A stretch of DNA of 37,945 nucleotides. It comes from a virus. Taxonomy: Monodnaviria > Loebvirae > Hofneiviricota > Faserviricetes > Tubulavirales > Inoviridae. The number at the start of each line of letters is the position of its first letter. The stretch's first letter is position 1. The stretch lies in the IMG/VR virus record IMGVR_UViG_2923312938_000004. One strand, 5' to 3'. The notes below the pieces were generated by a model that made no database searches, was not told the origin of the DNA, and saw nothing but the letters and a program-made list of their open reading frames with translations. Shown piece after piece: positions 2,316 to 29,773 of the stretch. The translations under genes and the position numbers were made by a program.

Positions 2316-4191
<1,876 letters not shown>

Positions 4192-4705: not shown

Positions 4706-4879
4706 ATGAACAACTGGAGTGAGATCATATTAGACCTGCTGATGAAGCACATAATAGGTGGCGCTGCGATTGGCGTGGCTATCCTGTTGTTTGCCGGAGT
4801 GATTTTTCCTGTTGCGCTGAAGATAAGGAAGCTCACTGGCAGGAAAAAACAGCGAATAAAACAGAAACTCATCAGTTAA
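4706..4879 (+). CDS. Small membrane protein (57 aa) with polybasic C-terminal tail
   Basis: Strong SD GAGGGGAAG before the ATG at 4706. MNNWSEIILDLLMKHIIGGAAIGVAILLFAGVIFPVALKIRKLTGRKKQRIKQKLIS has one TM helix plus a Lys/Arg-rich tail. Intact in all five copies, whereas the upstream part of the long ORF is frame-broken in copy B. Confidence 0.55.
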   Translation: MNNWSEIILDLLMKHIIGGAAIGVAILLFAGVIFPVALKIRKLTGRKKQRIKQKLIS

Positions 4880-4883
4880 GGCC

Positions 4884-4977
4884 AGTGCGCACAATGACGT
4901 TATGTGTAAAAAGGCCGCTGCGGTGGAGAGTATCGCAGCGGCCTTTTCAACATAACGTGTAACACATTATGCGCACT
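4884..4977. other. Putative attP: inverted pair of dif-like XerC/XerD-arm sequences flanking a hairpin
   Basis: Plus strand 4884-4910 AGTGCGCACAA-TGACG-TTATGTGTAAA. Minus strand of 4945-4977 reads AGTGCGCATAA-TGTGTTACACG-TTATGTTGAAA. Compare E. coli dif GGTGCGCATAA-TGTATA-TTATGTTAAAT (recalled from memory). The two sites form a ~100-bp imperfect palindrome. Confidence 0.6.
4907..4947 (+). terminator. Bidirectional intrinsic terminator hairpin at the centre of the attP palindrome
   Basis: aaaaaa-GGCCGCTGCG-gtggagagtat-CGCAGCGGCC-tttt, 28 nt after the stop of the small membrane-protein gene. Confidence 0.6.
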
Positions 4978-5087
4978 GGCGTTGTGGTAGCTGAATTAAG
5001 GTGTCCGTGTGGGTACACAAACCCGGGAGTAAAAAAAGAAAACGCCTTATAACCTGGGAAAGTTATAAAGCGTCCCGGAAAATCCAG
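4976..5087. repeat. Intergenic direct repeat, copy 1 (~110 bp)
   Basis: ctggcgttgtggtagctgaattaaggtgtccgtgtgggtacac...gaaaacgccttataacctgggaaagttataaagcg...ggaaaatccag. About 88 percent identical by eye to 5286-5392. Confidence 0.7.
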
Positions 5088-5285: not shown

Positions 5286-5392
5286 CTGGCGTTGTGATGG
5301 CTGAATTGAGATGTTCGTGTGGGTACACCGGGAAGTAAAAAAGAAAACGCCCTATAACCTGGGAAAGTTATAAGGCGCACTGGAAAATCCAG
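5286..5392. repeat. Intergenic direct repeat, copy 2 (~107 bp)
   Basis: ctggcgttgtgatggctgaattgagatgttcgtgtgggtacac...gaaaacgccctataacctgggaaagttataaggcg...ggaaaatccag. Partner of 4976-5087; part of a larger diverged ~300-bp duplication. Confidence 0.7.
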
Positions 5393-5775: not shown

Positions 5776-6996
5776 TCAGACCCGCCGGGCCTGAAGAACG
5801 ACGATGATATCGGTTTTCGCACGTTCATCAGAGTCTGAACCAAACACATCCGGCAGAAATGAAAGCCCTGTCCGCGCCTTTGATGTCTTGTTCTCCGCCA
5901 GTCCGCCCAGCACAATGATATCACCGTCATTCAGACTCACCGACGTGGACACCTCGCGCTTTATCAGCGTTGGCGTGTTATTCACCCCCGTATCCGTTTT
6001 TGCAAAGTTACTCAGCTGCTGAACGATATCCAGACCTATCACATCCTGCGTCACGGTGGGTTTTACCCGAAAAATAGCCCCGCTGCTGCGGTATTCCACG
6101 GACTGCACCGGAACCTTATCCTGCCATGACACTGATGACAGAACCGGCACATCAGACCCCACGCTGAAAACCGCCTCCTTACCGGAGATAACGCGCAGAC
6201 GTGGCGAACTGACCACCTGAAAACGGCTGTCGGTCCTGAATAACTCATACATTGCATCAACAGACCCCGTGCTGAGGCGAATAAAGTTATCCAGCCCCGA
6301 TGCGCTGCTCATGGTGATACTGAAACGACCGGATAAAAGCTCTGCGGCCAGCGCCAGACCTGAACCGTTACGCTCACTGGTCTGGACCTCAAACACATAC
6401 CCGGCAACCGAAACCTCCTGTGCCCTGACGTCAATCTGCGGCAGAAGCTGCCGGACAAGCTCAACTTCCCGGGCCGTTCCCCGGAACACAAACACATCCC
6501 CGGATGCACTGATGAACCGGGTACCACTGCTGACCGCCTGCCATGTCTGCTCACCGTTTGCCCCCTGAACCGGCTGTTGTGCGGCCGGAAGCTGACCCAG
6601 ACCGGAAAGCGCCTGATGCAGATACTCCACTGTCCGGTAACGGGGCGTGTAAACAAGGGATTTCAGCGGCTCCTCTGGTGCGGCAGGTGTATGACTGTAA
6701 ATATAATCAACGCCCTTTTTACGGCTTATCCTGATATTCATATTACCGAGATAACGGGTAATAAATTCCCGTTCATCGATATCCGGTGAAATATGCAGCG
6801 TGACGGCCCGCGGGTCATTGACCAGTTCAGGGGCCAGCATGAACGGTGTTTTCAGGACTTCCGTCCAGAGCAGCGTCACCGCATCAGGCAGGCTCATGCG
6901 GTTAATATCCAGTTCCGTCCCGGCTGAAAACGACGGCAGCGGGAATAACAGCGCCATTGCAGGCAGCACCGGGAGAAGTAATTTTCTGATATTCAT
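5776..6996 (-). CDS. Secretin (gIV-like outer-membrane export channel), 406 aa
   Basis: Signal peptide MNIRKLLLPVLPAMALLFPLPSFSA. C-terminus IIVLGGLAENKTSKARTGLSFLPDVFGSDSDERAKTDIIVVLQARRV resembles the conserved secretin/pIV C-terminal block. Last gene of the operon, after gI, as in Ff phages. Confidence 0.75.
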   Translation of the reverse strand: MNIRKLLLPVLPAMALLFPLPSFSAGTELDINRMSLPDAVTLLWTEVLKTPFMLAPELVNDPRAVTLHISPDIDEREFITRYLGNMNIRISRKKGVDYIYSHTPAAPEEPLKSLVYTPRYRTVEYLHQALSGLGQLPAAQQPVQGANGEQTWQAVSSGTRFISASGDVFVFRGTAREVELVRQLLPQIDVRAQEVSVAGYVFEVQTSERNGSGLALAAELLSGRFSITMSSASGLDNFIRLSTGSVDAMYELFRTDSRFQVVSSPRLRVISGKEAVFSVGSDVPVLSSVSWQDKVPVQSVEYRSSGAIFRVKPTVTQDVIGLDIVQQLSNFAKTDTGVNNTPTLIKREVSTSVSLNDGDIIVLGGLAENKTSKARTGLSFLPDVFGSDSDERAKTDIIVVLQARRV

Positions 6997-7005
6997 ATTC
7001 TGTCC

Positions 7006-8262
7006 CTATGGTGTGGTGAGAGAAACGGACATCCCCCCGGCACCGCTGCCGGACGAACGCGACGGGGAAGGTTCACTGCCTGACCCGCTGTGAAACGTGA
7101 TGTGTTCGCCATCCAGTTCCAGTACAGTAAGCAGCCCTTCATACGGCAGTTCACTGCGCACAAGCCGCGTGACGTTGCTGTTACTGCGCAGAATAAAAAC
7201 CCCCTGCCCGTTACCGTCACGCATATGACCGGAAAGCCGCCAGACACGGGAAAGCGGCAGTTCTGCCGGAGATGCGACCTGTGGTACAGGCGGCGCTTTT
7301 TCAGTGGTGATTACCTGTGGTGGTGCCTGCATGACCGTTGCAGCCGGCTCATCAGGTGTGCCGGAGAAAAAATCCAGCACAAGACGTCCCCAGAACCAGA
7401 AAAACAGGCCACCCACCACAACGGACAACAGTTTTTTACGGCGCGCCTGTTGCTGCTCCTTTCGTTCCTCTGCCGTGAAGGTCTGCAAATCCCCTTTCTC
7501 CTGCCGCTCACGCAGCCGCCGGAACTGCCGGAGGGTTCTGCCGGGCAACAGGGAATACATGGCGCGCATATCACAGACCCGCTGATGCTCACCCGTTCCG
7601 AGCAGTTCCATTCCGTCATCAAATACCATGTTTGTCGGATGGATACCGTAAAAGGACGGCGCATAAAAAACGCGGGATTCATTGGGACGGGAATTCGCCC
7701 GGGGAACACCGATATAAATTTTTGCCGAAATCAGGTGCGGCAGAAGCCCTTTCCGGCTGCCCGTATCGCCAAACTTATCCGGCATGCAGAGTTCCAGAAT
7801 ATCGGACACGACCGGGACACGAATACGATCAAGACGACGGCAGCGGACAATCAGCTCACCCGTGGATTTAAATATTTTGCTGTCAACGGCGGATTCATCC
7901 TGCACCTGAATATAAACATCCCAGCCCAGTTTCCCGGACTGTACAAACCATTTGTAATATTCCAGGTATTCCCGGCCGGAAGATGTGCCGTTAAGCCATG
8001 TTCCGACCTCATCCAGAAATAACGCACCAAACCGCTCCTTCTCATTTTCATCACAACCACGCCCCAGCGCCCAGAAATCTTCAGGACGAGGACGGGCCGG
8101 AAGCACGGTCAACGGATGCGATGAAGCCGGGTCCATTTTTTCAGTATCAAGCGGGTAATTTGCCGCAATTCTGTGTCCGCGACGGTAAAACTGTTTTGCC
8201 ACCATGGAGCAGAACAGCCCCTTCCCGTTGCGCATTTTTCCTGTCACCCAGTAAACAGCCAT
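7006..8262 (-). CDS. gI/Zot-like assembly NTPase (inner-membrane morphogenesis protein), 418 aa
   Basis: N-terminal P-loop-like motif VTGKMRNGKG (compare fd pI GKLGAGKT), a central TM segment (LLSVVVGGLFFWFWGRLVL) and a Pro-rich periplasmic tail. Sits between gVI and gIV. C-terminal length is uncertain: a C6 run at 7025-7030 gives 418 aa, a C5 run (copy C) gives 422 aa. Confidence 0.7.
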   Translation of the reverse strand: MAVYWVTGKMRNGKGLFCSMVAKQFYRRGHRIAANYPLDTEKMDPASSHPLTVLPARPRPEDFWALGRGCDENEKERFGALFLDEVGTWLNGTSSGREYLEYYKWFVQSGKLGWDVYIQVQDESAVDSKIFKSTGELIVRCRRLDRIRVPVVSDILELCMPDKFGDTGSRKGLLPHLISAKIYIGVPRANSRPNESRVFYAPSFYGIHPTNMVFDDGMELLGTGEHQRVCDMRAMYSLLPGRTLRQFRRLRERQEKGDLQTFTAEERKEQQQARRKKLLSVVVGGLFFWFWGRLVLDFFSGTPDEPAATVMQAPPQVITTEKAPPVPQVASPAELPLSRVWRLSGHMRDGNGQGVFILRSNSNVTRLVRSELPYEGLLTVLELDGEHITFHSGSGSEPSPSRSSGSGAGGMSVSLTTP

Positions 8263-10584: not shown

Positions 10585-12341
<1,757 letters not shown>

Positions 12342-13151: not shown

Positions 13152-13245
13152 AGTGCGCACAATGACGTTATGTGTAAAAAGGCCGCTGCGGTGGAGAGTA
13201 TCGCAGCGGCCTTTTCAACATAACGTGTAACACATTATGCGCACT
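13152..13245. other. Putative attP dif-like inverted pair (copy B)
   Basis: Same sequence as 4884-4977. Confidence 0.6.
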
Positions 13246-21413: not shown

Positions 21414-21507
21414 AGTGCGCACAATGACGTTATGTGTAAAAAGGCCGCTGCGGTGGAGAGTATCGCAGCGGCCTTTTCAACATAACGTGTAACACATTAT
21501 GCGCACT
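21414..21507. other. Putative attP dif-like inverted pair (copy C)
   Basis: Same sequence as 4884-4977. Confidence 0.6.
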
Positions 21508-29679: not shown

Positions 29680-29773
29680 AGTGCGCACAATGACGTTATG
29701 TGTAAAAAGGCCGCTGCGGTGGAGAGTATCGCAGCGGCCTTTTCAACATAACGTGTAACACATTATGCGCACT
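29680..29773. other. Putative attP dif-like inverted pair (copy D)
   Basis: Same sequence as 4884-4977. Confidence 0.6.

Follow-up and report, generated by a model that had tools for sequence, protein, structure and literature searches.

Putative CTXphi-type hairpin attachment site in a tandem filamentous prophage array at the dif locus of Escherichia coli

The stretch of DNA analysed here, the inovirus record IMGVR_UViG_2923312938_000004 (37,945 nucleotides; hereafter the window), consists of about 4.6 head-to-tail copies of an 8.27-kb filamentous phage unit with 99.9% identity between copies. The window is identical (100%) to positions 1546659-1584603 of Escherichia coli 503025 (NZ_CP025892.1), a stool isolate from India, and its close matches are mostly from enterotoxigenic E. 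coli (ETEC) strains. In this genome it sits inside a five-copy prophage array between a ydeQRST/fim-like gene cluster and hipBA, which is the dif locus. The subject of this report is a 94-nt module with four full copies in the window (first at 4884-4977), which we consider, with good confidence, to be the attachment site (attP) of a filamentous phage that lacks an integrase and uses XerC and XerD, the recombinases of its host, at dif, following the single-strand mechanism of CTXphi. As the window lies within a chromosomal array, these four copies represent phage-phage junctions carrying the attP sequence and not a free phage genome.

The recognised genes of the unit (Table 1) encode an RstA-like rolling-circle initiator (Rep), a Zot/pI-like assembly ATPase, a secretin and a pIII-like coat protein, and all of them lie on the minus strand of the window, which is thus the coding (+) strand of the phage. 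Pfam and PHROGs searches with ten open reading frames (ORFs) of the unit found no integrase, and the only families present were Rep_trans, Phage_Coat_A, Zot, Secretin and families of unknown function. Rep shares 33% identity with RstA of CTXphi over 92% of its length. The module itself consists of two dif-like sites in inverted orientation, 34 nt apart, with a 5-nt spacer in site 1 and an 11-nt spacer in site 2, placed around a 10-bp G+C stem. The initial annotation had described exactly this arrangement, and both its coordinates and its letters proved exact. E. coli dif reads GGTGCGCATAA TGTATA TTATGTTAAAT, with intact copies in UTI89 (L003:1506) and CFSAN061768 (L005:3352). Compared with it, site 2 matches at 10/11 positions of the XerC arm and 9/11 of the XerD arm, and site 1 at 9/11 and 8/11, respectively. 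The expected resemblance of both sites to the host dif was thereby confirmed (8-10 of 11 positions per arm), as was the proposed enterobacterial host with an E. coli-like dif, the host being E. coli itself with integration at dif. A scan of the window for the dif-like pattern returned 4 occurrences against 0.09 expected; since the window is made of tandem units, these are copies of one unit. An Rfam search of one 8.27-kb unit gave no match.

Table 1 Features of the window, with positions counted from its first letter.
Feature	Positions	Strand	Details
Site 1 (putative role of CTXphi attP2)	4884-4910	+	XerC-arm-like AGTGCGCACAA 4884-4894; 5-nt spacer TGACG 4895-4899; XerD-arm-like TTATGTGTAAA 4900-4910
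G+C stem-loop, predicted hairpin tip	4913-4943		GGCCGCTGCG 4913-4922; 11-nt loop 4923-4933; CGCAGCGGCC 4934-4943
Site 2 (putative role of CTXphi attP1)	4945-4977	-	Exchange partner of dif; XerC arm AGTGCGCATAA 4977-4967; 11-nt spacer TGTGTTACACG 4966-4956; XerD arm TTATGTTGAAA 4955-4945
Long-spacer bulge, 6 bases TGTTAC	4958-4963	-	Predicted fold; hypervariable among relatives
dif-identical segment GTGCGCATAATGT	4964-4976	-	Crossover interval; inferred XerC cleavage between 4967 and 4966
Module copy 2	13152-13245		Site 1 13152-13178; stem from 13181; site 2 13213-13245
Module copy 3	21414-21507		Site 1 21414-21440; site 2 21475-21507
Module copy 4	29680-29773		Site 1 29680-29706; site 2 29741-29773
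57-aa ORF, hypothetical (WP_001409659.1)	4706-4879	+	Ends 5 nt before site 1; opposite strand to structural genes
Rep, RstA-like rolling-circle initiator (Rep_trans)	2661-3887	-	Pfam PF02486, 1.5e-21; repeated in each unit, e.g. 10930-12156
Zot/pI-like assembly ATPase	7006-8262	-
Secretin	5776-6996	-	One per unit
pIII-like coat protein	363-1691	-

The junctions of the prophages locate the crossover. At the left end of the 503025 array the sequence is AGTGCGCATAA-TGTATA-TTATGTTAAAT, that is, a XerC arm of the site-2 type followed by the dif centre and the dif XerD arm, whereas the end on the hipA side reads GGTGCGCATAA-TGTGTTACACG-TTATGTTGAAA and adjoins the host flank; the internal junctions (n = 4) equal the attP sequence. 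Strain E24377A carries a single copy with the same two ends, and site 1 is intact in every prophage examined. These junctions place the crossover within GTGCGCATAATGT, an interval (4976-4964) that includes the position of XerC cleavage and leaves out the XerD side. The only identity between the long spacer and the dif centre is TGT, beyond which the two sequences have nothing in common. A homologous module, in each case at a host-phage junction, is found in Yersinia, Photorhabdus, Kluyvera and others, and outside E. coli the XerC arm on the host side is host-specific: GGTGCACATAA in Y. pestis, GGTGCGCCTAA in Photorhabdus, TGTTCGTATAA in Izhakiella, GGTTCGCATAA in Pectobacterium and GGAGCGCATAA in Kosakonia. 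An internal tandem junction of Y. pestis carries the phage-type XerC arm. With these host-specific arms the crossover narrows to about TAA|TGT. Integration at dif, as expected from the initial annotation, is thus borne out by the prophage junctions with a crossover on the XerC side of site 2. The proposal that both sites serve as attP holds in part, in that the two sites pair, but only site 2 exchanges with dif, and site 1 would supply the complementary strand. A crossover at site 1 can be discarded, being used by no junction, and so can one on the XerD side, as the dif centre and XerD arm remain together at the left junction.

Within the 503025 array, the host-type G at position 1 of the XerC arm occurs at the hipA-side junction only, and A is found at the other junctions and in the regenerated dif. 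We used this difference within the strain only and let the placement of the crossover lean on the host-specific arms of the other genera. A general rule by which A marks phage and G marks host was rejected, because the prophage-free E. coli C has A as well. Besides E. coli C (L097:1521-1548), the prophage-free strains ATCC 8739 and BLR(DE3) also have A instead of G at this position of dif, which could be a natural polymorphism or the scar of a past phage passage.

Junctions alone cannot distinguish a single-stranded from a duplex substrate, and we therefore turned to the comparison of relatives, in addition to folding. Folded as single-stranded DNA (ssDNA), the 101-nt region around the module reaches -43.7 kcal/mol on the minus strand of the window and -43.1 kcal/mol on the plus strand, compared with a mean of about -15 kcal/mol for its shuffles (z about -11 to -12; 0/200 fold as well). 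In the predicted fold arm pairs with arm, and the long spacer leaves a 6-nt bulge, TGTTAC. The computed structure agrees with the forked hairpin of the initial annotation, in which XerC arms and XerD arms pair around a bulged spacer. The plus strand, which had been named as the folding strand, is not the expected one: this is the minus strand, which codes for Rep, Zot, secretin and pIII. Among relatives, the site-2 top strand carries the large ORFs in 34/34 close contigs and in 21/22 stem families, and it is also the better folding strand in 33/34 and 19/22 of them, respectively, when RNA parameters are used (G.T wobbles 76 vs 43 in the strand comparison). As RNA parameters overstate G.T pairs, key cases were refolded with DNA parameters.

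The G+C stem probably nucleates the folding of the hairpin. It had been labelled a terminator, a label that gained no support from our terminator scan, in which the stem at 4913-4943 was not called and whose limit is exceeded by its 11-nt loop; the same simple scan did find other terminator-like hairpins nearby. The 10 bp of the stem are followed by T runs (TTTT/TTTTT) on both strands. A terminator function is possible but conjectural.

The module was found in 34 IMG/VR contigs, representing 24 unique versions, and a more distant search matched 936/5426 complete E. coli genomes, decayed copies counted. Conservation begins and ends precisely with the outermost base of either XerC arm, beyond which the flanks are unrelated. 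Among the relatives the short spacer is nearly always TGACG, whereas the long spacer consists of TGT, 5-6 freely varying bases and CG (columns 15-19 unconserved); conserved spacer ends with a drifting middle are what a bulge with paired flanks predicts. In an alignment of 23 variants, 96.5% of the cells are paired, compared with at most 50% when the alignment is slid; both partners have changed in three pairs, and the covariation score is higher than in 500/500 shuffles; the stem is 99.6% paired and its loop varies. Within the close family, a compensatory change from CG to CA has occurred on both sides in Rosenbergiella and Izhakiella. Diverged modules built on different stems came from a looser scan. 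In 19/20 spacer combinations, distributed over 8 dinucleotide classes, the short and the long spacer share their final two bases, a level reached by 0/10,000 permutations. Taken together, the comparison of sequences supports pairing between site 1 and site 2 on the (+) strand of the phage. Diverged hairpin attP modules were also seen on 12 small inovirus-like contigs from IMG/VR, with long spacers of 10-12 nt, short spacers of 6 nt, 41-92 nt between the sites and often two stem-loops. CTX-type attP sites seem to be common beyond Vibrio and Enterobacterales.

By analogy with CTXphi, we propose the following course of integration. In the circular (+) strand, equivalent to the window's minus strand, the top strand would come from site 2 and the bottom strand from the complement of site 1, held together around the G+C stem. 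The folded attP would then present one XerC arm and one XerD arm, with 5 nt on the bottom strand facing 11 nt on the top strand and six bases bulged. XerC, and presumably XerC alone, would cut the top strand after AGTGCGCATAA and exchange it with the top strand of dif, and the exchange would be stabilised by TGT pairing with the bottom strand of dif and TG with the site-1 strand. Since there is no homology on the XerD side, the reaction would stop at this point, and replication would resolve the stalled junction and convert it into a prophage. On one side a working dif would be regained, composed of the phage XerC arm, the dif centre and the dif XerD arm, and on the other side sites 1 and 2 would be kept as inert, double-stranded duplexes. 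As duplexes with spacers of 5 and 11 bp are poor Xer substrates, integration would in effect run one way only. The five-copy array would arise from successive insertions into the regenerated dif, and from it the RstA-like Rep may make new circles by rolling-circle replication across tandem copies. A circle junction equal to the internal junctions of the window is found in pJNE25-005_3 (9613 bp, circular), which is annotated as a plasmid and represents the free circle of a related filamentous phage with the same attP, an ISEc31 insertion and many apparent frameshifts.

The CTXphi-style reading of the initial annotation agrees with the dif location, the XerC-side junctions, the fold and the covariation of the spacers, and has comparative support. 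Several observations nevertheless weigh against it. With DNA parameters the advantage of the (+) strand is small, 1-2 kcal/mol (-37.7 vs -36.5; -27.5 vs -25.1), and in one stem family (L050, L086 and L090) the other strand is the better folding one. Two adjacent mismatches (T.C and G.A) occur in the XerD arm of the window variant once it is folded, and the type represented by the E. coli phage CUS-1 has a G.A mismatch at XerC-arm position 4 (12/23 variants). In the close family, 23/32 pairs never vary and covariation is thin there. Prophage-free E. coli vary between A and G at position 1 of the XerC arm, which is thus by itself a weak marker of phage origin, the junction sequences are equally compatible with a duplex substrate recombining at site 2, and the array could have grown by homologous recombination or by replication in situ.

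The last of these points concerns the array and not the module. Homologous recombination with incoming circles, integration of a multimer or local amplification would make the internal attP copies mere by-products. The unit copies are identical except for single-base indels, and superinfecting Ypfphi has been reported to insert between resident copies, possibly by homologous recombination (PMC4266046), as this explanation would have it. The pattern at the ends, with the host-type G at the hipA side only, is on the other hand exactly that of serial insertion into a regenerated dif, and we regard growth by these other routes as unlikely. It would in any case bear on array growth only and be compatible with the attP mechanism for the first insertion.

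A second alternative bears on the mechanism itself. In the manner of VGJphi, the double-stranded replicative form could recombine via site 2 alone, by XerC exchange followed by replication, leaving site 1 and the stem as merely a terminator or a leftover inverted repeat. The participation of only site 2 in the junctions is what such a duplex reaction would also give, a G+C-rich stem followed by T runs on both strands fits a terminator, and with DNA parameters the two strands fold almost equally. However, a spacer of 11 bp is far from the 6-7 bp of dif and of the VGJphi attP, and the equivalent 12-bp site of CTXphi is reportedly unsuitable as a duplex (PMC4246890). Site 1 is moreover kept in all of 24 or more variants. 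Its spacer is near-invariant, with ends that change together with those of the site-2 spacer, the central bases of which vary freely; had site 1 taken no part in pairing, neither pattern would be expected. The module's orientation to the coding strand is also constant across unrelated backbones. We therefore consider the duplex reaction very unlikely. That the tandem repeat is a long-read assembly artefact and the inverted sites an incidental palindrome or terminator has a negligible chance of being correct: copy-to-copy differences do resemble long-read noise and other terminator-like hairpins occur nearby, but a query across the phage-phage junction is matched over its full length at 100% in seven complete genomes independent of one another, the single copy of E24377A is bounded by clean dif junctions, and the module is conserved at host-phage junctions in Yersinia, Photorhabdus, Kluyvera and others with a fold z of about -12. 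The copies in the window differ by single-base indels only, mostly in homopolymer runs (7033, 9189, 12408, 12949 and others), some of which split Zot and the pIII-like gene in some copies of the RefSeq record, and these length differences are likely sequencing errors from long-read noise.

The single-strand reading draws on the characterised attP of CTXphi, in which attP1 has a 12-nt spacer, attP2 has a 5-7 nt spacer, and integration is irreversible and proceeds by XerC-only exchange (PMC4246890, PMC3089051). Like CTXphi, the window has two inverted dif-like sites with one long (12 vs 11 here) and one short (5-7 vs 5 here) spacer, and in both the homology to the dif centre is limited to the XerC-proximal TGT, in line with the published compatibility rule (PMC4246890, PMC3089051). 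The two spacers of CTXphi both end in CA (…GCCA / …GGCA; PMC3089051) and those of the window both end in CG, and the XerD arms of the long sites are alike (TTATGTTGAGG in CTXphi, TTATGTTGAAA in the window). The two phages also share the absence of an integrase, the regeneration of dif on one side, tandem arrays, an RstA-type Rep and the location of attP between the end of the assembly genes and divergently oriented ORFs. They differ in the distance between the sites (about 90 nt in a 150-nt hairpin in CTXphi, about 34 nt in a hairpin of about 94 nt here) and in that the window phage has E. coli as host, its own secretin and no toxin genes beside attP, and is known from sequence alone.

Two further Xer-dependent types were compared. 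VGJphi integrates reversibly through one duplex site whose spacer measures 7 bp, and TLCphi lacks a proper XerD arm and performs XerD exchange first (PMC4246890). Both share with the window phage the use of host Xer recombinases, integration at dif and the lack of an integrase. Assignment to the VGJphi type was rejected on the two sites with spacers of 5 and 11, and assignment to the TLCphi type on the XerD arm of site 2 (9/11 to dif) and the XerC-side crossover.

Parallels also come from enterobacterial phages. CUS-1phi of E. coli O18:K1:H7 and Ypfphi of Yersinia pestis integrate at dif and build up tandem arrays (PMC4266046). Both are listed as CTX-type (PMC4246890), and PMC3089051, citing Val et al. 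2005, states that their attP is equipped for the direct integration of a single strand. In UTI89 the prophage at dif, which we take for CUS-1, has a hairpin with 84% identity to that of the window, and the copy in Y. pestis NCTC5923 is of the same type. CUS-1/Ypfphi and the window share the stem GGCCGCTGCG, the spacer TGACG, the arms of site 2 and an 11-nt spacer built as TGT-N6-CG, and differ in the site-1 arms (GGTTCGCACAA / TTATGCTAAAG in the CUS-1 type), the bulge (ACGACT vs GTTACA) and the loop. Their backbone is not shared by the window phage, and the attP module alone is common at 84%: the UTI89 prophage has a Rep of the II/X family, a shorter Zot and other gene sizes, and the window phage an RstA-like Rep. 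UPphi (PMC7307601) likewise comprises dif-integrated tandem inovirus prophages of E. coli, but its backbone is IKe/I2-2-like with a II/X-family Rep, unlike the window phage. The tandem junction of UPphi in ECONIH2 (L114:9001-9092) contains a complete CUS-1-type hairpin module; in the paper describing UPphi, nothing beyond a partial dif repeat of about 15 bases is reported, and the terms attP, hairpin and inverted do not appear (PMC7307601).

Megablast of the whole unit against deposited phage genomes returned no match, so the phage is not a named one, and a protein search with Rep found distant RstA matches only, with no deposited phage closer. A description of this ETEC phage was not found in the literature searched, which was mostly without subscription papers. 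Tentatively, and with some doubt, the hairpin may be a self-contained single-strand attP cassette that is exchanged horizontally among at least three unrelated inovirus backbones (the RstA type described here, CUS-1/Ypfphi and the IKe-like UPphi, across Enterobacterales), and the ETEC element an undescribed RstA-type, CTXphi-like lineage of E. coli that amplifies at dif to five copies.

Altered dif centres were observed in rare E. coli genomes. In E. coli O8:H8 16F5M1D1 (NZ_AP019856.1, L002:3989-4479) the site reads AGTGCGCATAA-GACATA-TTATGTTAAAT, and beside it lies a 463-bp mini-element that ends in a hairpin attP of a second family, with the short spacer GAGCG, the long spacer GACATATGCCG, a different stem and G.T wobbles on the phage (+) strand. 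This altered dif has a full-length 100% match in one genome only, and its centre is unexpected because XerC-only exchange should leave the dif centre unchanged. In strains M19 (L098:1521-1548), M6, M9, M11, M15, SA31-1 and FREC5 the dif centre is TGCATA, and a CUS-1-like prophage adjoins dif immediately. TLCphi rewrites dif in V. cholerae. The centres GACATA and TGCATA are hints that some members of the family rewrite dif and thereby change which elements integrate next.

Decayed hairpins that retain site 1 and the stem but only one half of the XerD arm of site 2, all broken at TTTTCAA(C/T)ATA|TGGACATTT, are located downstream of cargo that is not of phage origin. On the CFSAN061768 chromosome this cargo is a SIR2-family gene between dif and hipA (L005:3352-6069), and on large plasmids, such as p1 of strain 268.2, it is a pseudogene of the STM4504/CBY_0614 family beside an IS200C remnant (L004:4057-5069). 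About 485 plasmid places matched in the distant module search, and the decayed copies look like decayed Xer-dependent islands that were copied onto plasmids. On a 136-kb plasmid of E. coli Sx181-0-1 (L113:10270-10380), a window-type hairpin lies among insertion sequence debris with the site 2 AGTACACATAA-TGTGTTACACA-CTATGTTGAAC, which may combine the module with a plasmid Xer site or may simply have decayed. Two contigs of metagenome-assembled genomes, assigned to 'Candidatus Nanosynbacter' and 'Ruminococcaceae', carry a CUS-1-type module followed by the hipA-side flank CAACATAAACCAAGGGAGA and are probably mis-binned E. coli DNA, since this flank is that of E. coli.

Directly beyond the site-2 XerC arm of the window begins a direct repeat of about 112-125 bp (84-87% identity; 4976-5087 and 5286-5392), found at equal offsets in every unit. 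Downstream of the secretin gene, both repeat copies hold a hairpin that resembles a terminator (5076-5039 and 5378-5347, minus strand). The repeat may represent an origin, a packaging region or a phage 'left end' that was duplicated, similar to the mini-element of 16F5M1D1.

The single-strand integration strategy of CTXphi is itself already known and was proposed earlier for related phages of E. coli and Yersinia. The present analysis extends it, through junction evidence and at the strength stated above, to an uncharacterised RstA-type filamentous phage of ETEC that is present in five copies at dif. The case that can be made from sequence for hairpin pairing in this enterobacterial family is sharper than the brief statements in the literature searched, and it rests on co-varying spacer ends, a drifting bulge, a constant orientation and host-specific XerC arms in six genera. 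It also defines a 94-nt element that is directly testable with XerC and XerD of E. coli.

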